A stretch of 32,000 nucleotides of DNA from Geotalea uraniireducens Rf4. GTDB lineage: Bacteria > Desulfobacterota > Desulfuromonadia > Geobacterales > Geobacteraceae. The position numbers and the translations under genes were made by a program. Shown one piece after another: positions 4,414-25,339 of this stretch (the first letter of the stretch is position 1; each line of letters starts with the position of its first letter). Location: positions 2,220,001 to 2,252,000 of the forward strand of contig NC_009483.1 of NCBI RefSeq assembly GCF_000016745.1. The letters run 5' to 3'. The notes under the pieces were generated by a model. That model ran no database searches. It was given only the letters and a program-made list of their open reading frames with translations, and had not been told where the DNA came from.

Positions 4414-4599
4414 ATGATATCCGAAGCGTGGGCACTTGTATGTCTTGCCGGTTTCTATGGATGGATACTGTCAACAATAGGGTTCATTTTTAAGTCTTTT
4501 CCAGTTAAAGGTGTTTTTCATGGTAAGTCTGCAGCAGGATGGGGCGGTTCCGTCGTTATCTTCTATATAATCTGGTTGGCAGGAATGTTCAACGCTTGA
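4414..4599 (+). CDS. Small hydrophobic membrane protein (about 61 aa, two predicted TM helices)
   Basis: Internal ATG 4414 of track ORF 4375-4599, 1 nt after the GT2 stop and preceded by AGGGGA. The sequence MISEAWALVCLAGFYGWILSTIGFIF...VVIFYIIWLAGMFNA has two hydrophobic spans. No family recognised. Confidence 0.45.
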   Translation: MISEAWALVCLAGFYGWILSTIGFIFKSFPVKGVFHGKSAAGWGGSVVIFYIIWLAGMFNA

Positions 4600-4613
4600 G
4601 TGGGAGGACCATT

Positions 4614-6391: not shown

Positions 6392-6404
6392 AGGATAATA
6401 CTTA

Positions 6405-7502
6405 ATGTCATTGCATAGCATTCTTATAGCTTTTTTGATGATGTTTATTACAACGCCCATATTGGCTGTGGAATCCAATCAACCATCTCACCTTGATGTT
6501 CATAACGTTCCCAAAGGTTGTGCAACATGCCATTACGGGGTTAATTTTAAAACGGGTGGCGGACCGAATGTCTGTCTTATTTGTCATGGCGATCCGTCAA
6601 AATTGAAGCAGGAGTATAAATTTATGCCTAAAGGGTTTGCTCCCCAAGGCATTAACCTTAAAAACATTGAGACTGAATTCAGGAAATTATATCATCACCC
6701 GACTTTTGATGGGGCAGGAAAGCACAAGGTGAATGAGGTATTGCCGGAAATTGATGTAAGAGCTTTGCGTCATGCCGTGTGTGTTGATTGTCACAATCCC
6801 CACAACGTCTCCGCCGCTAACAAATTTGCCGGAATCAAAGATAAAAGGATGGGGAACTTACCGGTTGCAATTTCCAGCGAATATGAGCTTTGTTATAAAT
6901 GTCATGGTGATAGCGCAAATCTGCCTGGTCGTTCCACCAACAAACGGGTTGAATTTTCAAAAAATAACCCTTCTTTTCATCCTGTCGAGGCCGAGGGGAA
7001 AAATGCTGCCGTTGTCAGTCTGACAAAGCCTTATAAAGAAAAGAAACTTAGTCCTGGCGATGTTTCAATAATATCCTGCAGCGACTGCCACGGAAGTGAT
7101 AATTCATCTGCTCCCCAAGGCCCTCATGGGTCTAATTATGAATACATACTTGTGGATAATTTCTCGATTAAAGATAATCAACCGGAAAATTCATTTAATT
7201 ATGCCTTGTGCTATCGTTGCCATAGTCGAACCAGTATCCTGAGTGACGAAAGCTTTAAATATCATTCGCTTCATATTAGTGGTCGAACTGGTATTAATGT
7301 TTCCGTGAGTGGCACATCCTGCTATACATGCCACAGTTCTCATGGCAGTACGGAAAATAAATATCTGATCAGGTTTAATAAGGATGTTGTCTTTCCGAAC
7401 TCCAGGGGGGTGCTGAAATTTGTGGAAAAAGGAGTGTCTACGTTTCGTGGGGAGTGTTATCTAACCTGTCATGGTGTAGATCACGATCCAAAGAAATACT
7501 AA
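6405..7502 (+). CDS. Multihaem c-type cytochrome (7 CXXCH + 1 CX3CH)
   Basis: N-terminal signal/anchor. Motifs are CATCH, CLICH, CVDCH, CYKCH, CSDCH, CYRCH and CYTCH, plus CYLTCH at the C-terminus. Confidence 0.88.
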   Translation: MSLHSILIAFLMMFITTPILAVESNQPSHLDVHNVPKGCATCHYGVNFKTGGGPNVCLICHGDPSKLKQEYKFMPKGFAPQGINLKNIETEFRKLYHHPTFDGAGKHKVNEVLPEIDVRALRHAVCVDCHNPHNVSAANKFAGIKDKRMGNLPVAISSEYELCYKCHGDSANLPGRSTNKRVEFSKNNPSFHPVEAEGKNAAVVSLTKPYKEKKLSPGDVSIISCSDCHGSDNSSAPQGPHGSNYEYILVDNFSIKDNQPENSFNYALCYRCHSRTSILSDESFKYHSLHISGRTGINVSVSGTSCYTCHSSHGSTENKYLIRFNKDVVFPNSRGVLKFVEKGVSTFRGECYLTCHGVDHDPKKY

Positions 7503-7571
7503 ATTTACTTGTACTATATGACGTTTTGTAAATTGTTGTTGAAATGTCGTTAATAAATGGGATTACAAACT

Positions 7572-7602
7572 AAAACCATAGGTTTCTCAACCTATGGTTT
7601 TT
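7572..7602 (+). terminator. Rho-independent terminator closing the GT2-NHL-cytochrome operon
   Basis: Perfect 13 bp stem AAAACCATAGGTT / AACCTATGGTTTT with loop TCTC, running into a T tract. Confidence 0.7.
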
Positions 7603-7645
7603 ACTTGTTTTAAATTCAATTATTTTATGTTAAATTTATATCTCT

Positions 7646-8854
7646 ATGGCAATTTATAAGTGCAAAATAGGCTCATCAGACGGCAGAATTCTTGAAAAGG
7701 AAATTGAGGCCGTCAATACGGAAATTCTCAAGCAAAGTCTTGAAGAACAAGGTTATTTTGTATTTGAAATAAAGAAAAAACCCCTGCAGTTTCTTTTGGA
7801 AAGCGGCATTACTCGTCGTAAGGTAGACAATAAGGATCTTCTTACGTTCAATCAGGAACTGTTGGTGCTTATTAAAGCTGGACTACCCATAATACAGGCT
7901 TTAGATACAATTTTAGAGAGGGTTGAAAAAGGAAAGCTCGGAGAGATATTAAGTGAGATACGCGAAGATGTTAAGGGTGGAGCAGCGTTATCTGTTGCTT
8001 TTGAAAAACATCCCAAGGTTTTTCCGCATCTCTATATCGCATCTATTCAAGCCGGCGAAAGAACCGGCGATTTACCGCAAACCATAAGAAGATACATTGC
8101 TTTTCTCAAGAAAGCCGAGGGTTTCCGAAAAAAAGTGTTGTCTGCCTTGGTTTACCCTGCCATAGTTATTACTGTTGCTTTTGTCGCCGTTACGCTGTTG
8201 TTGGTCTACGTGGTTCCCACATTCAGCCAGGTATACGCCGATTCCGGTTCAAGCTTGCCTGTGCCAACTCAGATGCTGATTGCCTTTACGGGTATTCTCA
8301 AAAAATTCTTTTGGGCCGGTGTAGGTCTTTTTATTTTGGCAATTTTTATTTTTAGACGTTGGGCTGAGACTGAACGCGGGAGATATAGGGTTGACGCTTT
8401 GCTGATAAAGGTACCTTTTATTGGTCAGCTTCTCATTAAGTACGCCGTGTCAAGTTTTATGCGAACGTTGGCAACGGTATTGGGGAGTGGCATACCGATT
8501 ATAGAATCGTTGAAGATGTCCGTCGGAACTCTCAATAATATGGTTTTGGAACGTAAGCTGCTGGAAGCGGTCGTAAGAGTGGAAGAGGGCGTTCAATTGT
8601 CAACTGCATTGGAAGGTGCTAAAATTATGCCGCCGCTTGCGCTTCGTATGCTAGGTGTTGGAGAAACCACAGGTTCTTTGGAAGAAATGCTGGGTGATAT
8701 CTCGGATTATTTCGAAGAGGAAATCGAACGTCATCTGAACGTATTAACCACTTCAATAGAGCCGGCAATTATGATAATTATGGGTGTTGTAATCGGTGTT
8801 ATTATTGTAACTATGTATCTTCCTATATTCAAAATCGCAGGAACTGTCGGATAA
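7646..8854 (+). CDS. gspF: Type II secretion / type IV pilus inner-membrane platform protein (GspF/PilC family)
   Basis: 402 aa with the duplicated T2SSF domain architecture, three TM segments and the typical N-terminus M.IYKCK..SSDGRILEKEIEA. Confidence 0.93.
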   Translation: MAIYKCKIGSSDGRILEKEIEAVNTEILKQSLEEQGYFVFEIKKKPLQFLLESGITRRKVDNKDLLTFNQELLVLIKAGLPIIQALDTILERVEKGKLGEILSEIREDVKGGAALSVAFEKHPKVFPHLYIASIQAGERTGDLPQTIRRYIAFLKKAEGFRKKVLSALVYPAIVITVAFVAVTLLLVYVVPTFSQVYADSGSSLPVPTQMLIAFTGILKKFFWAGVGLFILAIFIFRRWAETERGRYRVDALLIKVPFIGQLLIKYAVSSFMRTLATVLGSGIPIIESLKMSVGTLNNMVLERKLLEAVVRVEEGVQLSTALEGAKIMPPLALRMLGVGETTGSLEEMLGDISDYFEEEIERHLNVLTTSIEPAIMIIMGVVIGVIIVTMYLPIFKIAGTVG

Positions 8855-10585
8855 ATGGAAAGAATGAATCAATCATTTAAAAGAAAAAAACTTGGTGACA
8901 TTCTGCTAGGCAAAAATGTCATTACACCGGAACAGCTCGCATTCGTTATCGATAAGCTGAAAACAACAGATGAGCGGTTTGGTGTGATATGTGTCAATGA
9001 TGGACTAATCACTGAAGAAGCTTTGTCCATGGCACTTGCAGAGCAATTTGGGCTTGAATATGTCGATCTTCGTGGATTTAAAATGGAGGAGGCTATCCTT
9101 AACACCCTTCCTCCTGATGCCATGCACCGTTATCACTTCATCCCTTTGGAAGTCCGGGGGGAAGCCCTGGTAGTCGCCATTTCCGATCCGACCGATGTTC
9201 TCAAGCTGGATGAAATGGAACTACTGCTTGACAGGCCGATTATTTTTAAAATTGCGGCTGAATCCGAAATAGCCATTCTGCTAAAAAAAGGAGAAGGTAC
9301 TAGTCGAGTCCTCAAAGAAGTTTCTGAGGATTTCATGCTCCAGTTGGTTACTGAGACCGAGAAGGGCGAGGAGGTCTTGTCTGTAGAAAAGATTTCCGCC
9401 GACACCAGCCCGATAATAAAGCTTGTGAACTCCACTATTCTGGATGCTCTCAACCGGCGAACGAGCGATATTCATATTGAAACCACACAGGATGGAGTTA
9501 TTATCAAATACCGGATCGACGGAGTATTATACAAAGCTACAGATCCGATAGATCTTCATTTTCAAGGTCCGATTATCTCCCGGCTTAAAGTCATGAGTGA
9601 ACTGGATATTTCTGAACGGCGCATTCCCCAGGACGGAAGGTTCAAAGTCAGAATTAATGGGAAATCCATCGATTTTCGTGTTTCTATTATGCCCAGCGCG
9701 TTCGGCGAGGATGCCGTTATACGTATTCTCGACAAGGAAAGTATTGCCACTGATCTTAAAGGATTAACGCTTGAAACCCTTGGTATGGACCCTCGGGAAA
9801 TCAAGCGCTTTCGTAAAATGATCAAAGAGCCTTACGGCATGGTGCTTGTCACGGGTCCCACCGGCTCAGGGAAAACCACCACGCTTTATGGGGCACTAAC
9901 TGAAATTCATAGTGGTGAAGAAAAGATAATCACTATCGAAGATCCTGTTGAATACGTTCTGCGCGGTATTGTTCAGATCCCGGTTAACGAAAAGAAGGGG
10001 TTGACCTTTGCTCGCGGACTTCGTTCCATATTGCGACACGACCCTGATAAGATCATGGTCGGAGAAATAAGGGACCCGGAAACTGCACAGATAGCCGTGC
10101 AATCCGCCCTAACCGGGCACCTTGTATTTACAACTGTCCATGCGAATAATGTTTTTGACGTTATCGGTCGTTTTACCCATATGGGAATCGACCCGTACAA
10201 TTTTGTCGCCTGTTTGAATTGTGTTATGGCCCAGCGACTCGTACGAAAGATCTGTCCAAAATGCAAGGTTCCAGTGACGATTTCCGATGAGAAGCTGCTG
10301 GAATCAGGAATCAGTCCCGAACGATGCCGCGGCGTAACATTTTATGATGCCAAGGGGTGCGACGACTGTAATGGCACGGGATATCGCGGTAGATCTGCTA
10401 TTGTTGAATTATTGGATCTGAACGATGAAATTCGTGAGTTGATCATAGCTAAAGCATCTGCAATACAATTGAAAAAGGCGGCCAAGGAAGCAGGTACGGT
10501 GTTTTTACGTGAATCAGCCGTAGAAAAGGTATTAGCCGGTGAAACGACATTGCGCGAGATTAATCGTGTCACCTTTGTTGAATAA
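8855..10585 (+). CDS. gspE: Secretion ATPase (GspE/PilB family) with an N-terminal T2SSE_N/MshEN-type domain
   Basis: Walker A GPTGSGKTT, Walker B IMVGEIRD, His box TGHLVFTTVHAN and tetracysteine CPKC...CDDC. The ATG abuts the gspF stop. Confidence 0.95.
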   Translation: MERMNQSFKRKKLGDILLGKNVITPEQLAFVIDKLKTTDERFGVICVNDGLITEEALSMALAEQFGLEYVDLRGFKMEEAILNTLPPDAMHRYHFIPLEVRGEALVVAISDPTDVLKLDEMELLLDRPIIFKIAAESEIAILLKKGEGTSRVLKEVSEDFMLQLVTETEKGEEVLSVEKISADTSPIIKLVNSTILDALNRRTSDIHIETTQDGVIIKYRIDGVLYKATDPIDLHFQGPIISRLKVMSELDISERRIPQDGRFKVRINGKSIDFRVSIMPSAFGEDAVIRILDKESIATDLKGLTLETLGMDPREIKRFRKMIKEPYGMVLVTGPTGSGKTTTLYGALTEIHSGEEKIITIEDPVEYVLRGIVQIPVNEKKGLTFARGLRSILRHDPDKIMVGEIRDPETAQIAVQSALTGHLVFTTVHANNVFDVIGRFTHMGIDPYNFVACLNCVMAQRLVRKICPKCKVPVTISDEKLLESGISPERCRGVTFYDAKGCDDCNGTGYRGRSAIVELLDLNDEIRELIIAKASAIQLKKAAKEAGTVFLRESAVEKVLAGETTLREINRVTFVE

Positions 10586-10617
10586 ACAATGCGTATTCGG
10601 AATTCCAGTTTCTTTGC

Positions 10618-10646
10618 TTCGAAGCGCACATCCTTTAGGGTATAAT
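10618..10646 (+). promoter_or_regulatory. Possible internal sigma70 promoter ahead of the pilM-like gene
   Basis: Perfect -10 TATAAT (10641-10646) with a weak -35 TTCGAA 17 nt upstream. The -35 overlaps the 10 bp palindrome GCTTCGAAGC (10614-10623). Confidence 0.3.
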
Positions 10647-10716
10647 TTCCCTTTAAACATAGCTTATAAAGCTGAGCTCTGCGCATCTTCCAAGCAGAAT
10701 TACCAAAAGGTGTTTA

Positions 10717-11643
10717 ATGCTATTTCCTAAAAAAGCCTTAGGTGTTGAAATATGCAGCGAAGGCGTTAAGATGGCCCTTGTTGAAGGGCGACAAAATGCT
10801 TTACGTCTGGACGCCTATACTGCCTCGTCTTTGCCTGCCGATACGATTAAATTTGCCCTTAGAGAGCAAAATGTTCTTAACCCATCGGTATTTGTCAATA
10901 TTATTCGAGAGACTTATCTACGGTTGTTGACAAAGACCAAACACGTTTCCGTTTCTTTGCCTGACACAACGGGTCGGGTGATCCTTTTGGATCTGGAAAC
11001 TCGCTTCAAGAGCAGGGATGAGGGTGCAGACATTATTCGCTGGAAGCTGAAAAAGAGCTTTCCGTTTAATATCAGTGATGCGCACCTGGATTATCAGTTG
11101 TTGGAAGAAAAAGATTCCGGCGAGATATCTCTTCTCGTGTCAATTATTGCAAGGCAGGTGGTTAATCAATACGAAGACTTGTTCGTGGAAGCCGGACTCG
11201 AACCCAATTGCATAGATTTCACAACCTTTAATCTGTACCGGCTTTTCTCGGGTCGGCTTTCAATATCTGAAAACGCCGCTTTCATGACTTTTTACGGTGG
11301 CATGGTTACCATACTTGTTTTTTATGCCGGCGTACTATCATTCTATCGATCCAAAGAAATCCCCGGCGGTACCCTTGAGATAAACCGCGCATACCGAGAA
11401 ATCAACAGCTCGCTGCTTGTTTATCAGGATATGCATCCAAGTCATACTATCAATGAAGTTTTTTGTGTCGCCACCGGTGATGATGCCGAAGCATTTCGTG
11501 CTATTGTCGGTGAGGCAACCGGTCTGGAACCGATACTCCTGGATGTCAATCGGGTTGTTTCTGCCAAAAGCGGCTTGACTGTTGACAGAGTAACGCTTCA
11601 TTCTCTGACAGCAGCGTTGGGCGCAGCCGTAAGGAATCTCTGA
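10717..11643 (+). CDS. pilM: PilM-like actin-fold assembly protein
   Basis: 308 aa. The N-terminal LGVEICSEGVKMALVEG matches the PilM/FtsA-like phosphate-1 region. The position directly upstream of PilN/O-like genes supports the call. Confidence 0.85.
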   Translation: MLFPKKALGVEICSEGVKMALVEGRQNALRLDAYTASSLPADTIKFALREQNVLNPSVFVNIIRETYLRLLTKTKHVSVSLPDTTGRVILLDLETRFKSRDEGADIIRWKLKKSFPFNISDAHLDYQLLEEKDSGEISLLVSIIARQVVNQYEDLFVEAGLEPNCIDFTTFNLYRLFSGRLSISENAAFMTFYGGMVTILVFYAGVLSFYRSKEIPGGTLEINRAYREINSSLLVYQDMHPSHTINEVFCVATGDDAEAFRAIVGEATGLEPILLDVNRVVSAKSGLTVDRVTLHSLTAALGAAVRNL

Positions 11644-12182
11644 TGCAACTGAAAATAAATCTGGCAACCAGAAGTTATATCAACACCCGGCAACTAAATC
11701 TGGCTATTGCGGTATCGATTGCGCTTTTATTGCTCTGGATGTTTTTTAATGTCAAGGATATCGCTTACAACAGTGGTGAAATGAAGCGTTTGACAACAGA
11801 TACAACGGCATTGGATACAAAATTCAAGGCAGCGAGTAAGGGTGTACCTGAAAAAGAATACAGCACGCTCTTGTTAAAAATAGGTTTTGCCAATTCGATT
11901 ATTGAAAAAAAATCCGTCAACTGGCTTGTGTTGCTTGACAATCTTGAAGCAGTCGTGCCCGAAGGGGTGGCCATTTCTGCAATTGAACCCGACCCCAAAA
12001 AACAGATTCTGAAACTCTCCGGTGCTGCAACGAATTTCAATAATGTGCGACAATTCGTTGAAAATCTGGAGTCATCGAACTTTTTCACCACCGTATTCCT
12101 TGAGAATCAGGCGGAAATCAAGGTTGGACAGAGCCAAAAGGGAATATCCTTTACCATCTCCTGTAAGGTTGATTATAAATGA
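11643..12182 (+). CDS. pilN: PilN-like bitopic assembly protein
   Basis: Starts MQLKINLATR, has one TM helix (LAIAVSIALLLLWMFF), then a coiled coil and a ferredoxin-like C-terminal domain. The start overlaps the pilM stop (TGATG). Confidence 0.8.
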   Translation: MQLKINLATRSYINTRQLNLAIAVSIALLLLWMFFNVKDIAYNSGEMKRLTTDTTALDTKFKAASKGVPEKEYSTLLLKIGFANSIIEKKSVNWLVLLDNLEAVVPEGVAISAIEPDPKKQILKLSGAATNFNNVRQFVENLESSNFFTTVFLENQAEIKVGQSQKGISFTISCKVDYK

Positions 12183-12733
12183 TGAAATATAAATTTATTC
12201 TGGAGACGATCAGGGCGTGGCGAAAACCCGCTATATTCGTGGTCGTATTGCTTTTGATAAATGTCTGTTCTTATCTATATCTTACTATCTACCAGGAACC
12301 ACGCCTCGAATCATTGCAGAATAACTGGTTTGAAAAACGGCAAAAAATTAATTCTATGGCCGTTGTGGATCCAGCTACGGTATATGAGCAGGGAACACGA
12401 GATCTGAAGACCTGGTCGTCCAGAATTCCACCTAAAAAGGATTTTGCCCGTTTTCTGGGGGATTTGTTCGAGACGGCTGCCAATAACAATCTTTCAGTTA
12501 AAAGCGTAACCTACAAGCCTAATCTTATTAAAGATGAGGGACTTCTTGCTTACTCCATCGCATTTTCAGTTTCTGGAAATTACGCGGCGGTAAAAAGTTT
12601 TATCTCAGATATTGCCCGCTCACGACAGATTGTTACGATCGATAACCTATCCCTGAATAACAGCAGTACGACACAGGAGGCTATAGAGCTCAAGCTTCAG
12701 CTTACTACGTATTTACGGGTGGAGGGGGCATGA
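12179..12733 (+). CDS. pilO: PilO/GspM-like bitopic assembly protein
   Basis: One TM helix (AIFVVVLLLINVCSYLYL) and a periplasmic alpha/beta domain. ATGA overlaps with both neighbouring genes indicate translational coupling. Confidence 0.72.
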   Translation: MMKYKFILETIRAWRKPAIFVVVLLLINVCSYLYLTIYQEPRLESLQNNWFEKRQKINSMAVVDPATVYEQGTRDLKTWSSRIPPKKDFARFLGDLFETAANNNLSVKSVTYKPNLIKDEGLLAYSIAFSVSGNYAAVKSFISDIARSRQIVTIDNLSLNNSSTTQEAIELKLQLTTYLRVEGA

Positions 12734-13359
12734 ACCGCCAAAAGATGATCCTCGCTATCCTGCTGGTGCTCCTGGTATTGGCAATAATCTATAGTTTTGC
12801 TCGCCAACCAAGACCGAAGCGGGCAAAGAGCCTCAAATATACTCCTGGAGTTGCTGCTGTCAGCAGCAGGCCAACTTCCAATGCCACCGGTGCAGTCCGA
12901 GCCGACGATAAAAAACTTCATCTTGAACTTCTTGACAAGGAGTTCCCACATTTTTCCGGTTTCCGACGTAATATATTCAAACCAATCTTTCATGAAGAGA
13001 TGAAACTTCCTTTAGCGACATCATCCCCTTCTGTCAGACCGACTTTGCCGGTGCCACCCCCTCCGCCATCGCCGTCACTTCCACCGCCACTGCCGCAACA
13101 AATTGTTGAGGCAACGCCAATCCAGCGTGATATGGCTAGGTTCACGTTCCTCGGTTTTTTGAAGAAGGATAATAAGAAAACAATTTTTCTCTCCAGTGAT
13201 AAAGAAATTTATCTCGTGAAAAAGGGAGATACCATCGCGGGTAAGTATGAGGTATCCAATCTTACCGAAGAGGCATTAACCATTCATCCGTTGATAGATG
13301 GGGGTGAGATTATTATTCCGCTGGTAGAGAACAGGGCGTTAGTTGCCCCGCGACATTAA
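12730..13359 (+). CDS. PilP/GspC-like protein with a TM anchor, poly-proline linker and C-terminal beta domain
   Basis: TM helix ILAILLVLLVLAIIY, linker PTLPVPPPPPSPSLPPPLPQQ, and C-terminal FTFLGFLKKDNKKTIFLSSDKEIYLVKKGDTIAGKYEVSNL, which resembles PilP / GspC-HR domains. The call is positional as well as motif-based. Confidence 0.55.
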   Translation: MNRQKMILAILLVLLVLAIIYSFARQPRPKRAKSLKYTPGVAAVSSRPTSNATGAVRADDKKLHLELLDKEFPHFSGFRRNIFKPIFHEEMKLPLATSSPSVRPTLPVPPPPPSPSLPPPLPQQIVEATPIQRDMARFTFLGFLKKDNKKTIFLSSDKEIYLVKKGDTIAGKYEVSNLTEEALTIHPLIDGGEIIIPLVENRALVAPRH

Positions 13360-13389: not shown

Positions 13390-15780
13390 ATGCGTTATAT
13401 AAAACAGATGTCAACAGTGCTTTTTTGCCTGGCAATTTTATCGGGTTGTGCAGGCGGTCGCTCTGCATTCAGCAAAGCAGAAAAGCTCGAACGTGATGGG
13501 CGTCTGGATGAAGCAGTGATGAAATATGCAGAAGTTGTAGCGGCAAATCCTGGTGTAGGTGAATATCGGGCTAAGTACCTGCAATCAAGTGCTGCCGCAG
13601 CTCAAAAACATCTTCAAAAAGGGGACGATTTTGCTGCTGCTAAAAAATATGACGATGCTTTACGGGAATATCAGACGGCATTTGCACTAGATTCTTCATT
13701 GGCGCGTGCAAAGCAGGAAAGCGATCAGGTTATAAAGCTCAGAAACGCTGAAGTCTATTTTAAGGAAGGCGAGGAGTTTGAAAAAAACCGTAAGCTCAAG
13801 GAAGCTGTCCGTGCCTATCAGAAGGCGCTTGAATTCGACCAAAACAACAGTGCTGCCAAAGATGCAGTCGAGAGGCTTATAAAGAGTAAACGGCCGAAAC
13901 TCGACGGTTATGAACTAAATCTCAAATCAAACAAACCGATCACACTTAAGTTCAAGGATGCAAAAATTAAGGAAGTTTTTAATATCATTTCTCAACTTTC
14001 CGGCATCAACTTTGTTTTCGACGAGGGCGTAAAAGACCAGAATGTGTCTATTTATCTGGAGAATGCCACGTTCCAGCAGGCGCTGGAGATCATATGCGGC
14101 ATCAACAAGCTCGGAAAAAAGGTGCTGAACGAGAACACCATCATTATTTATACTAAAAACCCCGAAAAAACCAAACAGTACGAGGAGTTGTTCGTACAGA
14201 CTTTTTATCTCAATAAACTTGAGGCAAAAAAGGCGGTAAACCTTATCCGCACCATGCTGCAGGTAAGAAAGATCTACGTGAATGAAGAGATGAATGCCCT
14301 TGTAATACGCGATACACCGGATGTCATCGAGGTTGCCCAGAAGATACTGGAAGCTAATGATCTTCCCGATGCAGAAGTGGTATTGGAGGTTGAAGTGATA
14401 GAGATCTCCAAGAACAACGCAGAGAGCTTTGGTCTTGCATTGAGCAGATACGCTGTTTCCACAGCTGCAGCAGCGGAAGGCTCCTCAACGTTTCTCTCGG
14501 ATGTACTTGTGCCACCTGTTTCTACAACTCCAACAAATACAACTAACACTCCAACTTCGAATCTCCTGAATTACTTTAGATGGCGTGGCTTTAACGGGTT
14601 TCTTACGGTACCGAATGCCACGTTCAATTTTGGCAAGACCCTGTCAAACAGCGAAACATTGGCAAATCCGAAAATCAGGGTCAAAAACAGAGAAAAGGCC
14701 AAGTTTAATGTCGGTCAAAGGGTCCCCATCACAACCACCTCATCTCCGACCGGCGGCGGAGTCAGTGTCAATGTCCAGTATGTGGATGTAGGGGTGAAGT
14801 TGAACGCCGAACCGACCATTCAGCTTAATAATGAGGTTTCAATCAAGCTAAGCCTTGAGGTTAGTTCAATCCTCAGCAAGGAGAAGGTGGGGTCGACGGA
14901 TTCGTTGACAACGGTTGTGACCATCGGCACCCGCAACCTCGATACAGTTTTAAGTCTCAAGGATGGTGAGACCAGCATTATCGGTGGCCTTATGCAGGAT
15001 TTAAAAAGCAAGAACAAGCAAAAAATCGTGCTCTTGGGGGATATTCCTCTCATTGGACCGTTGTTGTCCCAAAATGATGACACAAATAATAAGTCTGAAC
15101 TGGTGTTGGCGATAACTCCGCGGATAGTACGTTCGATAACCATTCCTGAAGGGGATGTTGCTGCTTTCTGGTCCGGTAAGGAAGATGAACCATCCACATC
15201 AAAACCATATTCCTCCTTTATTCAGGAACCTGAAATATTACCTGCGCCGCCGATTTCGCCGCTCCCGGCAGGGGAGCCTCAAAAGCAGCCTGCTGCCGAA
15301 GTTCAAAAAGCACCGGCAGTTCCGCCGGCCACGGGGGCAAAGGTTGAGCCGGAGAAAGCTCCTGCCCCACGAATAACCTTGAATGTCGTTGCCCCCGCTT
15401 CAGTCAAGGTGAATGAGCAGTTTAGCGTTGGGATAAAAGTAGCCGATGCAAATAATCTATTAAACGCACCCTTGACGCTGGTTTATGATCCTTTGTTTCT
15501 GGATTTTGTCGGCTTGGCCGAGGGGGGATTTATGAAGCAGGATGGGAAAGCAACCCTTTTCCGGCCCACCATCGATAAAAATACCGGTCAAATTGCCGTT
15601 ACCCTCAACAGAGTGGGGGACGTCGGCGGGATAAGCGGGAGCGGCACCCTGCTTACTGCAACATTCAAGGCCAAGAATCAAGGGCCGGCCAGTATCGGTT
15701 TTCTCGATGTAAATTTCACCGCGCCCGGCGGAAAACCGCTGGAGGCAATTCCGTATAATGCAGTAGTGGATATTAAGTAG
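13390..15780 (+). CDS. Outer-membrane secretin lipoprotein (GspD/PilQ family) with N-terminal TPR repeats and a C-terminal cohesin module
   Basis: Track ORF begins at GTG 13381. ATG 13390 follows an AAGGAG RBS. Lipobox LSGC; TPR-like repeats at about aa 30-170; N0/Secretin_N-like domains; secretin core VVLEVEVIEIS...LGDIPLIGPLL...ELVLAITPRIV; then a P/E/K/A-rich linker and a cohesin-like module. Confidence 0.9.
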   Translation: MRYIKQMSTVLFCLAILSGCAGGRSAFSKAEKLERDGRLDEAVMKYAEVVAANPGVGEYRAKYLQSSAAAAQKHLQKGDDFAAAKKYDDALREYQTAFALDSSLARAKQESDQVIKLRNAEVYFKEGEEFEKNRKLKEAVRAYQKALEFDQNNSAAKDAVERLIKSKRPKLDGYELNLKSNKPITLKFKDAKIKEVFNIISQLSGINFVFDEGVKDQNVSIYLENATFQQALEIICGINKLGKKVLNENTIIIYTKNPEKTKQYEELFVQTFYLNKLEAKKAVNLIRTMLQVRKIYVNEEMNALVIRDTPDVIEVAQKILEANDLPDAEVVLEVEVIEISKNNAESFGLALSRYAVSTAAAAEGSSTFLSDVLVPPVSTTPTNTTNTPTSNLLNYFRWRGFNGFLTVPNATFNFGKTLSNSETLANPKIRVKNREKAKFNVGQRVPITTTSSPTGGGVSVNVQYVDVGVKLNAEPTIQLNNEVSIKLSLEVSSILSKEKVGSTDSLTTVVTIGTRNLDTVLSLKDGETSIIGGLMQDLKSKNKQKIVLLGDIPLIGPLLSQNDDTNNKSELVLAITPRIVRSITIPEGDVAAFWSGKEDEPSTSKPYSSFIQEPEILPAPPISPLPAGEPQKQPAAEVQKAPAVPPATGAKVEPEKAPAPRITLNVVAPASVKVNEQFSVGIKVADANNLLNAPLTLVYDPLFLDFVGLAEGGFMKQDGKATLFRPTIDKNTGQIAVTLNRVGDVGGISGSGTLLTATFKAKNQGPASIGFLDVNFTAPGGKPLEAIPYNAVVDIK
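15370..15777 (+). other. Cohesin-like domain at the secretin C-terminus
   Basis: RITLNVVAPASVKVNEQFSVGIKVADANNLLNAPLTLVYDPLFLDFVGLAEGGF...GSGTLLTATFKAKNQGPASIGF matches the cohesin beta-sandwich sequence pattern. Identified by eye only. Confidence 0.6.
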
Positions 15781-15802
15781 GCATCCGAATGACGGCTTGC
15801 AG

Positions 15803-16297
15803 ATGAAAAATTTGTCTAAAAACAATAGTGGTGTCAGTCTTGTAGAGCTGATCGTCACCCTGGTCATACTTTCGTTTCTGGCTGCGCTGGTCTTACCGTC
15901 TGCGCAGATGACGGCAAAAAGAAGCAAGGAACTTGAGTTACGGAGAAATCTGAGAACGATCCGTACTGCCATTGATGAGTATAAGAAATATTATGATAGG
16001 GCCGTTGAGGATAGAAAACTGATTCCGTCCTTAAACAAGTCGGGTTATCCTGAAACCTTGGAGCAACTGGTGGAAGGCTATGATTTTGGCGGGCTTACCA
16101 ATTATAAAATAAAGTTTCTCCGCAGAATCCCGGCAGACCCTTTCAACCCTCTCAAGCCCGGTGACGATAAGCCGTGGGGGCTTCGTTCCTACGTCGACAA
16201 GCCGGACAGTACGAATTGGGGGGGAGAGGATGTCTATGATGTGTATTCCCTGAGTGAAGAAACGGCCATTGACGGTTCGAAATATACGGATTGGTGA
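15803..16297 (+). CDS. Pseudopilin with an atypical prepilin N-terminus
   Basis: MKNLSKNNSG/VSLVELIVTLVILSFLAALVLPS has a G at -1, E at +5 and a hydrophobic helix. The track ORF begins at TTG 15797. Confidence 0.75.
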   Translation: MKNLSKNNSGVSLVELIVTLVILSFLAALVLPSAQMTAKRSKELELRRNLRTIRTAIDEYKKYYDRAVEDRKLIPSLNKSGYPETLEQLVEGYDFGGLTNYKIKFLRRIPADPFNPLKPGDDKPWGLRSYVDKPDSTNWGGEDVYDVYSLSEETAIDGSKYTDW

Positions 16298-16348
16298 TTA
16301 ATTCGCGGACGCGCTACCTATTGCTGCGTGCAATAAACGAGAGAATCG

Positions 16349-16765
16349 ATGCAGAAAAAGCTAAAGCAGCTGCTGAAAAAAAGGAATAAGGGTTTTACCC
16401 TGATCGAGTTGTTGATCGTCATGACCATTATCGGTATTCTTGCCGCGATATCAGTTCCCAATTACAGATGGGGCATTATCAAGGCAAAGGAAGCGGTGCT
16501 CAGGGAAGATCTTTACAATTTGCGCACAACCATCGATCAGTTTTATGCCGATCAGGGGAAATATCCTGATTCTCTTCAAGATATGGTGGACAAGAAGTAC
16601 CTGCGTGACATCCCCAAAGACCCCTTTACCAATTTGAAAGATACGTGGGTCGTTGTCACTCCTCCCCCGGCCGGTGAAGGACAGGAAGTCAAGGGATCGG
16701 TCTACGATGTGCATAGCGGTTCGGACGTGATAGGTACTACCGGAACCCCATATAATGAATGGTGA
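16349..16765 (+). CDS. gspG: Major pseudopilin, GspG/PulG-like
   Basis: MQKKLKQLLKKRNKG/FTLIELLIVMTIIGILAAISVPNY is a canonical prepilin cleavage/methylation motif. The body is GspG-like (LRTTIDQFYADQGKYPDSL..L....YL..IPKDP). Confidence 0.85.
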   Translation: MQKKLKQLLKKRNKGFTLIELLIVMTIIGILAAISVPNYRWGIIKAKEAVLREDLYNLRTTIDQFYADQGKYPDSLQDMVDKKYLRDIPKDPFTNLKDTWVVVTPPPAGEGQEVKGSVYDVHSGSDVIGTTGTPYNEW

Positions 16766-16848
16766 TATTGAACACAAAATGAGTTATGATTTGCTGGGGC
16801 ATAGGAAAAGCACTGTAGATGCCCGAAAATGAGAAAGAGGCTTGATTG

Positions 16849-17520
16849 ATGATACAACTTCATAACGTTTCCATGGCCTATCAGAGCGATATTTCGGCGC
16901 TGAACGGCATTAATCTAAAGGTCCCCAAAGGGGATTTTATTTTTTTAACCGGCCAATCCGGCGCCGGGAAATCCACCCTCCTGAAGCTCCTCTATGCGGC
17001 ACTATTGCCGACCCGCGGCCAGGTCTTGATTGAAGGACAAAATGTCACCAGACTTACCCGTTCGCAAATTCCCTACCTGCGTCGGAATGTGGGGGTGGTT
17101 TTTCAGGACTTCAAGCTACTTCCTCATCGGACTGTCATGGAAAACGTGGCCATAACCCTGGAGGTACTTGGTTGGGGGAAAAAGGATATCGGCAAAAAGG
17201 TTTACCACATCTTGAAGCAGATGGGTCTGGAGCATAAGATCAATTCCACGCCATTGAGACTTTCCGGCGGGGAACAGCAACGGGTGGCGCTGGCGCGAGC
17301 GCTGGTCAATGATCCCAAAATACTTCTGGCAGATGAGCCGACCGGCAATCTTGATGATGAGAATAAGGAACAGATCCTTTCCATTTTTAAAGAGGCAAAC
17401 ATCAGGGGTACTACCGTGGTTGTTGCAACCCATGATCGTCGACTGATAGAAAACTCGCATCGGAGAGTCGTGGTGCTTGAAAAGGGATGTATTGTGGAGG
17501 ATTCCGATGTCTCGAAATAA
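16849..17520 (+). CDS. ftsE: Cell-division ABC ATPase FtsE
   Basis: Walker A GQSGAGKST, signature LSGGEQQR and Walker B ILLADEPTGNLD. The gene is followed by ftsX. The track ORF starts one codon earlier, at TTG 16846. Confidence 0.93.
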   Translation: MIQLHNVSMAYQSDISALNGINLKVPKGDFIFLTGQSGAGKSTLLKLLYAALLPTRGQVLIEGQNVTRLTRSQIPYLRRNVGVVFQDFKLLPHRTVMENVAITLEVLGWGKKDIGKKVYHILKQMGLEHKINSTPLRLSGGEQQRVALARALVNDPKILLADEPTGNLDDENKEQILSIFKEANIRGTTVVVATHDRRLIENSHRRVVVLEKGCIVEDSDVSK

Positions 17521-18451
17521 GCCCGTCAAAAGGCAAAAGCTTGCGAGCGAAGGATTTACCGGCCGGACGGCATATTTTGTTTCCAGGGCTTTTCTTAATT
17601 TGCGCCAGAATATTTTCGTGAGTTTGCTGACAATCGGCACTATTTCCCTTGCCCTACTCATTATTGCGCTTTTCTTACTGGTTTATGTGAACCTGGAAGG
17701 TATGGCTGAATCGTGGAGTGAAAAAGTTCAAGTTACTGCATTTTTCGATCGAGAGCTGGCGCAGCAGGAAGTTGTGGCGCTGAAGGGAAAAGTCCAGTCG
17801 CTGAGCGGCACCGATAAGGTCGTGTATGTCTCGAAAGACGAGGCTATGAAACGTTTTCGTGCCCGTTTGAAGGGTCAGGAAACGCTTCTAGAGGGGGTAG
17901 CGCCCGAAGTTTTGCCTTCATCAATGGAGATCAGCCTCAAGAAAGAAAACCGCAGTAGTGAAATGGTAGATGCCTATGTCGCACGTTTGAAATTAGTACC
18001 CGGCATATCCGAGGTCCAGTATGGCGAGGAATGGGTCAAGCGGTTCAATACCTTCATGAACTTCATGCGTCTTGTGGGTGCACTGCTTGGCGGTTTTCTG
18101 ATTCTGGCGGGGCTGTTTATCGTATCCAATACCATAAAGCTGACCATCTATGCACGCAAGGATGAGCTTGAGGTTTTGGGACTCGTTGGCGCGACCCGAT
18201 TTTTCATAAAGGCTCCTTTTTTAATAGAAGGAATATTTCAGGGGGCTGTCGGAGCACTTCTGGCGCTGCTCATACTTACGGCCTGTTATTTCGGGTTTCT
18301 CCATAACGCCGGAAATTTCCTGTCTTTTAATCTTGCTGCGACCGGCCTCTCTTTTCTGCCGGTTTCTTATCTGGTGGCCCTGTTCTTAGGAGGAATAGGC
18401 GTGGGTTTCCTGGGCAGTCTTACATCTTTAAAACGTTTTATCACCATCTGA
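17507..18451 (+). CDS. ftsX: Cell-division permease-like protein FtsX
   Basis: ATG 17507 follows a GGAGGA RBS and overlaps the ftsE 3' end. The protein has four TM segments with a large first periplasmic loop. The track ORF extends to 17477. Confidence 0.9.
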   Translation: MSRNKPVKRQKLASEGFTGRTAYFVSRAFLNLRQNIFVSLLTIGTISLALLIIALFLLVYVNLEGMAESWSEKVQVTAFFDRELAQQEVVALKGKVQSLSGTDKVVYVSKDEAMKRFRARLKGQETLLEGVAPEVLPSSMEISLKKENRSSEMVDAYVARLKLVPGISEVQYGEEWVKRFNTFMNFMRLVGALLGGFLILAGLFIVSNTIKLTIYARKDELEVLGLVGATRFFIKAPFLIEGIFQGAVGALLALLILTACYFGFLHNAGNFLSFNLAATGLSFLPVSYLVALFLGGIGVGFLGSLTSLKRFITI

Positions 18452-18453
18452 TT

Positions 18454-19644
18454 ATGCCCAGACCCAGATCCAATGCAGCTCTATATGTCTGTTTTCTGCT
18501 GTTTCTATCCGTACCCTGCTTTGCCGATGTCAAAGATGATTTGCTGGGCATTAAGAGGGAGATAACAGAAAAGAAACTTCTGCTCAAAAAGACGAAGAAG
18601 GTTGAAAGTAAAGTATCCGGCGAGTTGGACCAAATTCAGAAAAACTTGCGGGAAAAGGAAGCGAGTCTCAATTCCCTTGGTCGTGATATGAAAGGTGTGG
18701 AAATCAGTCTGAACCGTACGCAAAGGGATATCGATCTTGCCAAGGCAGAGGCTGAACGAAAGAAACAACAGATAAACAGGCGATTAACTTCGCTTTATAA
18801 GGCTGGAGAGGCAGGCAGTCTGCGCATGTTCTTTTCCTCTGAATCATTTCCACAGATGACGGAAAATCTTCGTTATATGAGGTCTGTGCTTGAAAATGAC
18901 AAAAAGCTCTTTGCAGATTATAATGCGAAAATGGAAAACTTGCGAGTCCTCAAGACAACTCTCGAACGTGACGTGGCCCGCAAGGAAAAGATCAAAAGCA
19001 GTATAGAGGTTAAAAAGCATGAGATTGAGCAGGAAAAAAATAAAAAGGCCGGCTATCTCCTTAAGGTCAGAGAAGACAAAAAAACGTACATGTCCTCCAT
19101 AAAGGAGCTGCAGGCGAATGCAAACAGGCTTCAGGCTATGGTGGAAAGGCTTGAAGCAAGGAGTAGAAAAGGGTATAATTCAAAAAATAAAAATAAAACG
19201 GTGGTCGGATCGGAACACCTGCTTCCAAATGTCCCCGATAAAGGTCTGGGCGCACAGAAGGGGCGGCTGAATCTGCCGGTTAAAGGAAACATCGTCGGCC
19301 AGTTCGGCCGGCACAAGCATCCCGAATTTAACTCGTATACGGTGAATAATGGGATATCCATAGAAGCTTCAGTCGGAACACAGATACATGCCATTTATGA
19401 GGGACAGGTCATATTTGCCGATTATTTCAAGGGATATGGCAATATGGTTATTGTTGATCACGGAGGCGGTTTTTTTAGCCTTTATGCTCACGCTGCAAAT
19501 TTGTTTAAAAAAGTCGGCGCAACCGTTGCAAAAAATGATGTGGTGGCCAGCGTCGGTGATACCGATTCCAGCAAAGGCCCGATGCTTTACTTTGAAATAA
19601 GATACCAGGGGAAGCCGGTAGATCCATCTCCCTGGTTCAGATAG
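18454..19644 (+). CDS. envC: EnvC-like murein hydrolase activator / M23 (LytM) family peptidase
   Basis: Signal peptide, a long coiled coil, and a C-terminal LytM domain (GISIEA..GT.IHAIYEG.V.FAD.FKGYGNMVIVDHGGGFFSLYAH). Its position after ftsEX supports the call. Confidence 0.88.
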   Translation: MPRPRSNAALYVCFLLFLSVPCFADVKDDLLGIKREITEKKLLLKKTKKVESKVSGELDQIQKNLREKEASLNSLGRDMKGVEISLNRTQRDIDLAKAEAERKKQQINRRLTSLYKAGEAGSLRMFFSSESFPQMTENLRYMRSVLENDKKLFADYNAKMENLRVLKTTLERDVARKEKIKSSIEVKKHEIEQEKNKKAGYLLKVREDKKTYMSSIKELQANANRLQAMVERLEARSRKGYNSKNKNKTVVGSEHLLPNVPDKGLGAQKGRLNLPVKGNIVGQFGRHKHPEFNSYTVNNGISIEASVGTQIHAIYEGQVIFADYFKGYGNMVIVDHGGGFFSLYAHAANLFKKVGATVAKNDVVASVGDTDSSKGPMLYFEIRYQGKPVDPSPWFR

Positions 19645-19709
19645 TTAATATATAACCAGAAAATATTCGGAAATTTTAAAACGATAAATAACGAGCTTTT
19701 GAGGGAGGA

Positions 19710-21047
19710 ATGATGTTTAGAAGCGGTAAGGGCAGGAAGATAACCATATTCATTACAGTGGTTTCTGCATTGGTGATCTTCATTGGCATGGGTGTCCAGC
19801 GTAGATGCGCAGCCCAAGGGGGTAACGACTATGAATCGATTGAGTTGTTTACCGATGTTCTCTCTATTGTCAAGAAGAGTTATGTGGAAGAGGTGGATAC
19901 GAAAAAACTGATTTACGGAGCGATCAACGGCATGTTGTCTTCCCTTGATCCGCATAGTTCTTTTATGCCGCCTGAAACGTATAAAGAGATGAAGATAGAT
20001 ACGAAGGGGTCGTTTGGCGGGTTAGGTATCGAGATAACGATCAAGGACGGCATATTGACGGTAATCTCGCCAATAGAAGACACCCCGGCATTCAAGGCAG
20101 GCATCAAGGCCGGCGATCAGATACTCAAGATCGACGACAAATTCACAAAAGACCTGACCATTACCGATGCAGTCAAGCGCATGAGAGGCCCAAAGGGATC
20201 CAAGGTCACCATCTCCATTTTCCGCGAAGGGCTGGATAAGCCGAAGGAGTACACTTTGGAGCGGGATATCATCCAGGTGAAGAGTGTCAAGTTCAAAACA
20301 CTCGACGACGGATATGGATATGTAAGAATTGCCCAGTTTCAGGAAAAGACCGACGATGACCTCGATAAAGCCTTGAAGACTCTACGTGATGAAAATGGCG
20401 GCAACCTGCGCGGCCTTGTTCTTGACTTGCGCAATGATCCGGGCGGACTCCTGGATCAAGCGGTCCGGGTTACCGAGCACTTTATCGATGAAGGCAAGCT
20501 TATTGTTTATACGGAAGGTCGTGAAAAAGATTCGAAGATGAAGTTTACTTCCCGCAAAGGGGGCAAGGAGCAGCATTATCCGATGGTGGTCCTCATCAAC
20601 AGCGGCAGCGCCAGTGCCTCCGAGATTGTTGCCGGCGCCCTGCAGGATCATAAGCGGGCTGTAGTTATGGGGACCCAGAGTTTCGGTAAAGGGTCTGTTC
20701 AGACCATAATTCCTCTTTCAGATAATTCCGGCCTCAGATTGACCACGGCTCGCTACTTTACACCCAGTGGACGTTCGATCCAGGCCAAGGGAATTACTCC
20801 CGATATCGTTGCCGAACGGGTTGAACTTGCAGCAACAGAGAAGAAGGAAGGGATGCACATCAGGGAAAAAGACCTGGAGAACCATTTCGAGGTGGAAGGC
20901 AAGGAAAAAGTGGACGAGAAAAAACCTGTAAAAACACCGGCTTATAAAGCGGATGAGCAGGTCAAGGCTGATTCCCAATTGCTTCGCGCATTGGACCTGC
21001 TGAAGGGATGGGAAATACTGAAAACGATCGATAAGCCTGCTGCATAG
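19710..21047 (+). CDS. ctpA: Carboxy-terminal processing protease (S41 family, PDZ-containing)
   Basis: PDZ domain (GGLGIEITIKDGILTVISPIEDTPAFKAGIKAGDQILKID). S41 core with LVLDLRNDPGG and catalytic GSASASEI. The start is ATG 19710 or 19713, after a GGGAGG RBS. Confidence 0.93.
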   Translation: MMFRSGKGRKITIFITVVSALVIFIGMGVQRRCAAQGGNDYESIELFTDVLSIVKKSYVEEVDTKKLIYGAINGMLSSLDPHSSFMPPETYKEMKIDTKGSFGGLGIEITIKDGILTVISPIEDTPAFKAGIKAGDQILKIDDKFTKDLTITDAVKRMRGPKGSKVTISIFREGLDKPKEYTLERDIIQVKSVKFKTLDDGYGYVRIAQFQEKTDDDLDKALKTLRDENGGNLRGLVLDLRNDPGGLLDQAVRVTEHFIDEGKLIVYTEGREKDSKMKFTSRKGGKEQHYPMVVLINSGSASASEIVAGALQDHKRAVVMGTQSFGKGSVQTIIPLSDNSGLRLTTARYFTPSGRSIQAKGITPDIVAERVELAATEKKEGMHIREKDLENHFEVEGKEKVDEKKPVKTPAYKADEQVKADSQLLRALDLLKGWEILKTIDKPAA

Positions 21048-21255: not shown

Positions 21256-21900
21256 ATGGAGCCTGCCATGGGTCGTGCAAGAGGTGTGAAAAAAACTGAA
21301 GAAATAGAAGAGCTGTCAGTTCATGCCTTTGGCGGTTTATCCATTTATTACAATGGAATACCGATCACGGTGATATGGGAAAGCCAGAAGGCACGTCTCC
21401 TTTTTTGTTATCTCCTTGTTACCTACGACCAATGGATGCATCGGGACAAGCTGATTGAGGCCTTGTGGCCGGGATGCGAACCGAGTGCAGGCGCCAATAA
21501 TTTTAAAACCACCATCAGTCGGCTGAGAAAATCTTTCAGCGGCGCACATATTGTCAATCCGGTCCTGATGCAGGGAGAAGCGGTAAGAATCAACATCGCT
21601 TCAATCAGTCTGGATTCCAGTAAGTTCGTACAGAAAGCCACGTCCGGTATCAAGTCTTTAGCGCGGGGTGAAATGAGCGAGGCGAGAAAATACCTGGAAG
21701 AAGCCCAAGACCTCTACACCGGCGAATTTCTCACAGAAGAACCTTTCAACCAGTTCATAACCGGCGCGCGCAACGAATTGAGTGAACTCCACATTTCAGT
21801 CATCAAATCTCTCGAAAAGATTTATCAGCAGGAAGGGAATACCGACGCCCTCGATGCCATTCGCATGCTTACCAAGTCCCTCATTACCCGTATTGCGTGA
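21256..21900 (+). CDS. SARP-family transcriptional activator (OmpR/PhoB-type winged helix + BTAD domain, no receiver domain)
   Basis: LSVHAFGGLSIYYNGIPI....SQKARLLFCYLLV......HRDKLIEALWP........NNFKTTISRLRK is the SARP DNA-binding pattern. It is followed by a BTAD helical region (ARKYLEEAQDLYTGEFL). ATG 21268 has the better RBS (GGAG 21258-21261). Confidence 0.8.
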   Translation: MEPAMGRARGVKKTEEIEELSVHAFGGLSIYYNGIPITVIWESQKARLLFCYLLVTYDQWMHRDKLIEALWPGCEPSAGANNFKTTISRLRKSFSGAHIVNPVLMQGEAVRINIASISLDSSKFVQKATSGIKSLARGEMSEARKYLEEAQDLYTGEFLTEEPFNQFITGARNELSELHISVIKSLEKIYQQEGNTDALDAIRMLTKSLITRIA

Positions 21901-22005
21901 TTCTGCGTATCGTTCACAAACCATTCAAGGTCGTAGTTTTTTCCATAACTGAACTTTCCTTTATTTATCGTTATCTTAGCGGTAGTTACCGTTTCCCGGC
22001 CATGC

Positions 22006-22034
22006 TTGACATTAATTTTCCGCTCAAGTAATAT
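22006..22034 (+). promoter_or_regulatory. Putative sigma70 promoter for the Big_1 lipoprotein / cohesin gene pair
   Basis: TTGACA (22006-22011), a 17 nt spacer, then TAATAT (22029-22034). Confidence 0.5.
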
Positions 22035-22052
22035 AACACCTGTTGTGTATTG

Positions 22053-22080
22053 GGAAATGCGATAACTATAGTGCATTTCC
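22053..22080. promoter_or_regulatory. Perfect 8 bp inverted repeat (operator or 5'-UTR hairpin) between the promoter and the Big_1 gene
   Basis: GGAAATGC (22053-22060), 12 nt, then GCATTTCC (22073-22080). It sits just downstream of the predicted -10 element. Confidence 0.35.
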
Positions 22081-22117
22081 TGCTTGATAATGGGTAAATA
22101 TCCTCGATTCAAAAGGA

Positions 22118-23713: not shown

Positions 23714-23789
23714 TCAGGTACCAACCTGAGGGCCGGGAGATTTTCCGGCTCTCTGCACAATCAACGTAAAAAAAGAAGAGAGGTTAATT

Positions 23790-25136: not shown

Positions 25137-25164
25137 CCCGGAAATCCCAGCGGATAATCCCCGC

Positions 25165-25205
25165 AAAAACCGGCTCGTCTTAATTGACCAGCCGGTTTTT
25201 TTTTA
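25165..25205 (+). terminator. Rho-independent terminator after the cohesin/dockerin gene
   Basis: Stem AAAAACCGGCT (25165-25175) / AGCCGGTTTTT (25190-25200) with a run of 9 T. Confidence 0.75.
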
Positions 25206-25320
25206 TCTTTTTCGTAACTATTCAACACGGCGAAGTAACGGATTGGTTTTCTCAGGAGCGTGGGCATCCTGCCCGTGTTTCGGGCGGGTTTATGCCCGAA
25301 TACGGTTTGCATTTAACCAA

Positions 25321-25339
25321 TTCAAGCGATTCGCTTGAA
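25321..25339. promoter_or_regulatory. 19 bp perfect palindrome upstream of acnB (candidate operator)
   Basis: TTCAAGCGA-T-TCGCTTGAA, about 70 nt upstream of the predicted acnB -35 element. Confidence 0.3.

Follow-up and report, generated by a model that had tools for sequence, protein, structure and literature searches.

A cohesin-type module on PulQ, the secretin of the Geobacter-type Pul system, and a candidate dockerin-like partner encoded downstream

In secretins of solved structure the barrel carries the C-terminal S-domain on its periplasmic face, and lipoprotein pilotins bind to this domain there. HxcQ of Pseudomonas aeruginosa is a self-piloting liposecretin that bears the lipobox itself, and the secretins of type IV pili are served by the separate TPR lipoprotein pilotins PilF, PilW and Tgl. 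It has long been an open question how type II secretion systems pick out their folded substrates, and we know of no linear secretion signal for this pathway. Herein we describe PulQ, a secretin encoded at positions 13390..15780 on the + strand of a 32,000-nucleotide stretch of DNA (contig NC_009483.1, positions 2,220,001 to 2,252,000; hereafter the window), in which a lipidated TPR head and a PilQ-like body are followed by a linker and a C-terminal module with the sequence pattern and predicted fold of a cohesin.

The closest described counterpart is PulQ of the Pul system in Geobacter sulfurreducens and Pelobacter carbinolicus. The published gene table of P. carbinolicus gives pulF-E-M-N-O-P-Q-G-oxpG-ftsE-ftsX, identical to the order in the window, and in G. 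sulfurreducens the corresponding genes are pulF (GSU1784), pulP (GSU1779), pulQ (GSU1778), pulG (GSU1777) and ftsX (GSU1774) (PMC10599522 supplement). Because the gene order equals both the P. carbinolicus pul cluster and the GSU1774-1784 numbering, we identify ORF (open reading frame) 13390..15780 as the pulQ (GSU1778) orthologue and as the secretin of a Geobacter-type Pul system. From these two proteins, likewise annotated ‘secretin lipoprotein’ and embedded in the order pulF-E-M-N-O-P-Q-pulG-oxpG-ftsE-ftsX-M23-ctpA followed by a SARP regulator, the window PulQ shows essentially no difference. In G. sulfurreducens, a need in Fe(III) oxide reduction and in export of OmpB (GSU1394), the known Pul substrate, is known for oxpG only (Mehta 2006). 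Deletion of gsu1771 in the same organism raises expression of pulQ, pulG, pulP, pulF and ftsX together with biofilm electroactivity (PMC10599522), and PulQ and PulE are reportedly more abundant in conductive biofilms.

In the ORF list of the window, the pulQ frame is open without a break from 13381 to 15780. The start was assigned to ATG 13390, since AAGGAG stands 8 nt upstream and the resulting N-terminus matches those of the homologues (MRYIKQ or equivalent). From this codon to the TAG stop at 15778-15780 the protein has 796 aa; Pfam residue positions below follow a 799-aa numbering. The gene assignment draws on the ORF, the Shine-Dalgarno sequence and start codon, Pfam and NCBIfam domains and gene order. 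In order, the protein comprises a lipobox, about four TPR motifs, N0/STN, one Secretin_N, the secretin core, a Pro/Ala linker and a cohesin, a set of domains that is not attributable to chance. Each of these elements had been called by eye in a first-pass annotation of the window, and hidden Markov models (HMMs) bear the calls out, joined for the cohesin by a structure model.

The lipoprotein signal peptide (13390..13449), read from the sequence, closes in L-S-G-C with Cys at residue 20, which matches the pattern [LVI][ASTVI][GAS]C used here to test for a lipobox and predicts a lipoprotein, as in HxcQ. A strict lipobox closes the signal peptide in 92/120 homologues. Others carry the variants G-G-C, F-x-G-C, N-x-G-C, M-x-G-C or S-x-G-C, always with Cys last, and the sole homologue without one, P0063, is N-terminally truncated. 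The TPR domain of about four repeats (13447..13941) abuts N0 directly. Pfam TPR_2 (32.7 bits, cut-off 27) and TPR_11 (30.2 bits, cut-off 26.8) match residues 81-156, and a family profile of the head matches consensus and natural TPR proteins in the PDB at E = 1e-42 to 1e-10, with pilotins absent from its 60 best PDB matches. The NCBIfam TraC model matches PulQ at E = 2.9e-5 and the Tgl model weakly (E = 0.034, 13.5 bits, cut-off 225). The sequence similarity of the head is that of TPR proteins in general, and its likeness to PilF, PilW and Tgl an appealing analogy; from these pilotins it further differs in being fused to the secretin.

The predicted periplasmic part of the body (13930..14375) combines N0/STN with a single Secretin_N of the N1/N3 type. 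STN scores 29.8 bits (cut-off 28.4) over residues 209-259, next to a type_II_gspD_N0 match at residues 189-229, and Secretin_N scores 34.3 bits (cut-off 28.2) over residues 272-331. The core that would form the outer-membrane barrel and gate (14644..15132) matches Secretin (PF00263) at residues 422-584 with 129.8 bits (cut-off 27.5, E = 1e-37) and closes with LAITPRIV. PulQ thus has what defines the secretin superfamily in Pfam, namely the core, N0 (STN) and at least one Secretin_N, and scans against Pfam and NCBIfam found neither AMIN domains nor a recognisable S-domain.

Measured against known secretins, the body of PulQ is PilQ-like in sequence. Residues 184-583 align to positions 1-427 of the 428 in the PilQ model TIGR02515, through N0, the single N1-type domain and the core, and PulQ also has PilM/N/O/P-like partners. 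Its score, however, is 165.2 bits against a cut-off of 284.35, hence it is no PilQ equivalog. PilQ moreover has AMIN domains where PulQ has the lipidated TPR head, and stops soon after the core, whereas PulQ continues for 216 aa and ends in the cohesin. With GspD it shares the core and an exporter driven by GspE, GspF and pseudopilins, but only residues 297-585 align to TIGR02517 (173.4 bits, cut-off 351.35). Furthermore, GspD carries N1-N3 against the one Secretin_N of PulQ, and ends in an S-domain for its pilotin rather than in a tethered cohesin.

The first-pass annotation placed a linker of about 60 aa between core and cohesin. An extension is indeed there, of a different size: a conserved 36-aa post-core segment (RSITIPEGDVAAFWSGKEDEPSTSKPYSSFIQEPEI; 15130..15237), delimited from alignments of the homologue extensions, is followed by a variable linker of 41 aa (15238..15360). 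The segment has the consensus ..DVAAFWSGKEDEPS..KPYSSF.QEPE and may stand in for the S-domain. The linker is rich in P, A, E, K and Q; across 120 homologues its counterparts range from 33 to 179 aa (median 76) and contain 27% Pro and 26% Ala.

The cohesin module of about 140 aa (15361..15777) forms the very end of PulQ. In the full protein, Pfam Cohesin (PF00963) matches residues 672-769 with 39.1 bits (E = 1.1e-9, cut-off 24.1), and the C-terminal 157 aa by themselves score 44.3 bits. A profile built from 32 orthologous PulQ modules (alignment A1) was compared with 177,635 PDB sequences; its matches are mainly cohesins, including every match at E <= 0.026, and the best are 3l8q (6.7e-5), 4ums (3e-4) and 1aoh (3e-4). 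An AlphaFold2 model of residues 655-799 achieved a predicted local distance difference test (pLDDT) score of 93.5 and is all-beta with 9-10 strands. The 50 PDB matches listed for it by Foldseek are all cohesins, with E of about 1e-9 to 2e-7 and template modelling (TM) scores of 0.67-0.81. Among the Foldseek matches is the non-cellulosomal Archaeoglobus cohesin 2xdh (TM 0.79/0.83, root-mean-square deviation 2.2 Å). Three independent lines, namely Pfam, the PDB profile and the modelled fold, thus identify the module as a genuine cohesin, in agreement with the first-pass call. The cohesin signature and nine-strand beta-sandwich are shared with the cohesin-dockerin systems of Clostridium thermocellum (CipA/OlpC), Clostridium perfringens (NagJ-NagH) and Archaeoglobus fulgidus (2xdh). 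The carrier differs, being an outer-membrane secretin of a Gram-negative metal reducer, and so, likely, does the compartment, which would be the periplasm.

The fusion is intact and widespread. The modules lie in one reading frame with no frameshift or stop between them, and the cohesin HMM is matched by 121/121 sequences (the query and its 120 best database matches), which share the same fusion down to about 55% identity. In 80 representative genomes, obtained by similarity to the PulQ locus, every complete PulQ orthologue has the cohesin, and the five loci that lack it are cut at contig ends. The organism belongs to the Geobacteraceae, and its closest named relative is Geotalea toluenoxydans (75-82% identity); homologues from Geobacter species are 55-65% identical with the same Pfam architecture, and a Pelobacter-labelled metagenome-assembled genome (MAG) has a protein of the same TPR-STN-Secretin_N-Secretin-Cohesin architecture. 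The same series of domains is encoded in the betaproteobacterium Aquabacterium soli (L082:9506-12082; 32% identity, Cohesin 30.7 bits), adjoining GspE/F and two pseudopilins, which points to horizontal spread or to an older origin of the architecture. A protein-database search with the cohesin module alone returned 7 fragments only and is uninformative on other architectures.

Across the homologues, a survey that the first-pass annotation had proposed, the C-terminal extension is strictly conserved and the linker variable in length. The module has seven invariant positions (P18, D49, E60, G61, G99, G101 and G114) and about 20 nearly invariant ones. A Pro/Ala-rich linker of drifting length next to a conserved cohesin has the appearance, in the sequences, of a flexible tether with a conserved terminal domain; and the constancy of the fusion, set against the changing linker length, indicates that the tethered module is probably functional. 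That the domain is a functionless relic of neutral accretion is consistent with its absence from the literature found, yet we regard this as highly improbable, given its retention in 121/121 homologues, in all complete orthologues of the 80 genomes and in a betaproteobacterium, with several positions invariant next to a freely drifting linker.

Whether the fusion was already catalogued had been left open. Many homologues are named ‘cohesin domain-containing protein’ or ‘type II secretion system protein’ by NCBI and UniRef, so the databases do hold it, and the gene has a name, pulQ/GSU1778. Full-text literature searches brought up no paper in which a cohesin is mentioned for a secretin or for PulQ; the searchable literature handles PulQ as an ordinary secretin, with the cohesin and TPR domains unmentioned. 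PulQ is therefore a known, named gene whose unusual architecture is on record in databases and, as far as we searched, apparently undiscussed.

We tentatively read this architecture, from sequence and structure models, as a docking device in which periplasmic cohesins around the Pul pore capture dockerin-like partners, and give this reading somewhat less than even confidence. The secretin core would assemble into a multimeric gated pore. The lipidated TPR head, which replaces the AMIN domains of PilQ, would probably be a built-in pilotin or assembly module, comparable to PilF, PilW and Tgl, that helps PulQ to reach the outer membrane or to assemble there. Past the core, each subunit would extend a Pro/Ala tether of 33-179 aa, long enough for a reach of several nanometres, with one cohesin at its tip, so that the cohesins would stand in the periplasm around the pore. 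There they would bind dockerin-like partners and so raise their concentration at the portal; such a partner could be cargo staged for export, or else a scaffold or accessory protein. The first-pass annotation had left open which side of the outer membrane the module faces. Because the S-domain of solved secretins sits on the periplasmic side, the PulQ cohesin is, by analogy, most likely periplasmic, which answers the question in part.

The best candidate partner would be orf448, a secreted protein of 448 aa encoded 8 kb downstream of pulQ at 23790..25136 (+), whose calcium-loop/helix module is combined with a cohesin of its own that could extend the chain. Its ORF gave the single match when the window was scanned in six frames for the dockerin/EF-hand calcium loop, and it was characterised by Pfam, PDB profile, AlphaFold2, Foldseek and synteny. 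Behind its signal peptide the protein has an N-terminal cohesin, which a low-complexity linker connects to a conserved middle domain (about 150 aa, fold unassigned); the dockerin-like module and a Lys-rich tail follow. Across the family the C-terminal module reads D.DLDKSGK.TE.DF..FLKERGT.KAPKYDLNGDGRRDYIDDYIFT.NYL and contains two calcium-type loops (D-x-D-x-S-G...D-F..FL and D-L-N-G-D-G-R-R-D-Y-I-D-D-Y-I-F), each with a helix behind it, in an arrangement that resembles a dockerin. In the motif DLNGDGRRDYIDDYIFTxNYL the second loop keeps D, N, D, DD and I without exception, and the first loop is degenerate in some lineages. The AlphaFold2 model of this region (pLDDT 90.6) forms two loop-helix units with helices at residues 32-40 and 60-76, and its best structural matches, though not significant, are dockerin chains of cohesin-dockerin complexes.

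Family-level comparison covered 26 syntenic orthologues (alignment A2) and 84 database clusters; in databases the protein goes by ‘cohesin domain-containing protein’ or ‘EF-hand domain-containing protein’ (Geob_2656). Pfam Cohesin is found in 16/26 orthologues (best E = 1.4e-8), EF-hand_1 is matched at E = 0.0013, the family profile matches PDB cohesins (4ums, 3e-5), and the PulQ cohesin HMM matches some members at about 1e-5. From the single window sequence the attempt to identify the N-terminus as a cohesin failed (BLASTP E = 0.09, hhalign 2.8% probability, no Pfam match), and the N-terminal cohesin is recovered by family-level evidence only. The gene is syntenic, 5.1-8.1 kb downstream of pulQ, in 30/57 genomes with sufficient flank, where it follows ctpA and the SARP regulator. 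Among the 7317 ORFs of all loci obtained, 30 of the 35 matches to the calcium-loop motif belong to the orf448 family. A Desulfuromonadales MAG without orf448 encodes in the corresponding region, about 8 kb downstream of a cohesin-bearing PulQ, a 596-aa protein (L068:20962-22749) with the architecture FN3-FN3-Dockerin_1, in which Dockerin_1 scores 29.2 bits (cut-off 22.9); its metallopeptidase matches are weak.

Between the regulator and orf448 lies a Big_1/invasin-type Ig-repeat lipoprotein of 531 aa (22118..23713, +), found in only 8 related loci of the Geotalea group. Its C-terminal region was considered as a further cohesin and rejected as not cohesin-like.

Several results weigh against partner capture, and against orf448 as the partner. 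The window orf448 scores below the Pfam thresholds of both Cohesin and Dockerin_1 (PF00404, cut-off 22.9). Among the 26 orthologues, Dockerin_1 is weakly matched in four (best E = 0.032), and the family profile matched no PDB dockerin in a sequence search; compared with known dockerins the candidate is divergent and below family thresholds. Foldseek returned nothing significant for the C-terminal model: dockerin chains of cohesin-dockerin complexes take ranks 1, 2 and 4-7 and make up nine of the top 25, with target-normalised TM scores of 0.5-0.64 and a best dockerin E of 0.59, none of them significant, and the other matches are geometrically meaningless. In 27/57 genomes orf448 is absent from the 10-kb flank despite the universal PulQ cohesin. 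Its module could also bind its own cohesin instead of that of PulQ, and the likeness of the PulQ head to pilotins is, as described above, generic only. From sequence and model, identification of the C-terminal module as a dockerin is thus suggestive only. Of the first-pass proposal that the pore carries a docking site tethering a partner, the conserved tethered module and a candidate partner nearby now stand, while partner capture itself is only predicted.

Alternatively, the cohesin could serve the secretin itself, in its structure or assembly, taking the place of S-domain/pilotin or AMIN functions and having no dockerin partner. Such a module might self-associate into a periplasmic collar, or contact peptidoglycan, the PulP/PulM-N-O platform or the TPR head. 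The missing AMIN domains and S-domain would fit this, as would a cohesin that is universal next to an orf448 present in 30/57 loci only, the lack of any canonical dockerin in the window by calcium-loop scan and Pfam, and the many non-cellulosomal cohesins for which, according to the literature, no partner is known. We nevertheless consider it unlikely, if a serious contender. A linker varying between 33 and 179 aa suits a reaching tether more than a fixed collar, the module is by both sequence and fold a bona fide cohesin, a class known for protein docking, and dockerin-like (orf448) and true dockerin (L068) proteins are encoded nearby. Even if the cohesin were purely structural, it would still define a distinct secretin subfamily, with TPR head, PilQ-like body and cohesin tail.

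Returning to capture by periplasmic cohesins, a more specific version would have Pul recognise and stage its cargo through a cohesin-dockerin ‘address tag’. The crown of cohesins would capture a divergent dockerin-like Ca2+ module, orf448 being the first candidate, whose second cohesin would then give rise to a short scaffold. This version we regard as rather doubtful.

Less probable still is a surface-exposed cohesin that holds extracellular proteins, such as multicopper oxidases, cytochromes or matrix proteins, beside the pore in the manner of a cellulosomal scaffoldin. Classical cohesins do operate extracellularly, the Pul system is tied to extracellular electron transfer and conductive biofilms, and 32/62 loci also encode an NHL propeller and two multihaem cytochromes upstream. 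An extracellular role has also been proposed for the cohesin-dockerin systems of anaerobic methanotrophic (ANME) archaea. Placement at the surface is, however, at odds with the periplasmic C-terminus of solved secretins; a folded C-terminal secretin domain lacks a known route to the surface, and Pfam detects no extra translocator domain in PulQ.

Whatever its partner, PulQ permanently bears what appears to be a dedicated docking module, conserved in each complete member that we examined, in a family with a central part in extracellular electron transfer. The synteny of orf448 and its dockerin-like module render the hypothesis of cargo selection by Pul genetically testable in G. sulfurreducens, in which the orf448 orthologue probably lies next to GSU1771. 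If the address-tag version is true, a type II secretion pathway would for the first time have an explicit docking signal that can be transplanted, and a cohesin-dockerin pair would for the first time be seen to operate in a Gram-negative periplasm. In this context, the Pul system might also be used to engineer secretion or surface display in electroactive bacteria.

The neighbouring genes complete a recognisable Pul machine, with PilM/N/O/P-type alignment proteins, a GspE/F motor and two pseudopilins. The window runs from a glycosyltransferase of family GT2, the NHL propeller and two multihaem cytochromes c through GspF, GspE, PilM, PilN, PilO and a Pro-rich 209-aa protein to the secretin, then two pseudopilins, FtsE, FtsX, an M23 peptidase, CtpA and a BTAD/SARP regulator. 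The cluster order is the same in Geotalea uraniireducens, Geobacter metallireducens and about 76/84 related loci. By Pfam and synteny, PulF (GspF), PulE (GspE with an MshEN domain), PulM/N/O (PilM/N/O-like) and PulP occupy 7646..13359 (+), PulP being the 209-aa protein, for which Pfam gave no match. The two pseudopilin genes (15797..16765, +; Pfam N_methyl and T2SSG) are pulG and oxpG by position, following the P. carbinolicus order pulQ-pulG-oxpG-ftsE. The SARP-type regulator (21256..21900, +), with BTAD and winged-helix (Trans_reg_C) domains in Pfam, corresponds in position to GSU1771, and we infer from this synteny that it is the GSU1771 orthologue.

After the pul genes, the cell-division and envelope genes ftsE, ftsX, the M23 peptidase gene and ctpA (16846..21047, +) are found in about 70-75/84 related loci; the P. 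carbinolicus genome paper had already drawn attention to this tight linkage. Directly upstream of pulF lie the NHL beta-propeller and two multihaem c-type cytochromes with MtrC/MtrF-like domains (4539..7502, +), which are co-located with the Pul cluster in 32/62 related loci, are absent in Geomonas-type loci, and may be Pul cargo. An ORF of 142-153 aa that separates the second cytochrome gene from pulF in G. uraniireducens and G. metallireducens does not fit into the 144-nt gap of the window (7502..7646). Beyond about 22 kb (22000..32000) the G+C content rises from about 0.44-0.49 to 0.51-0.61, with its peak over an 843-aa ORF (25535..28066) that is aconitase-like by eye; the rise may reflect gene content only.

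On a broader scale, comparison of the PulQ cohesin profile with 1.84 billion representatives yielded 13,923 matching proteins, which places the PulQ module in a very large population of cohesins. Those at the top (e.g., P0128-P0146) are scaffoldin-like, with 3-13 cohesin repeats, and come from uncultured bacteria such as Candidatus Desantisbacteria. Large non-cellulosomal cohesin systems seem to be common in environmental genomes.

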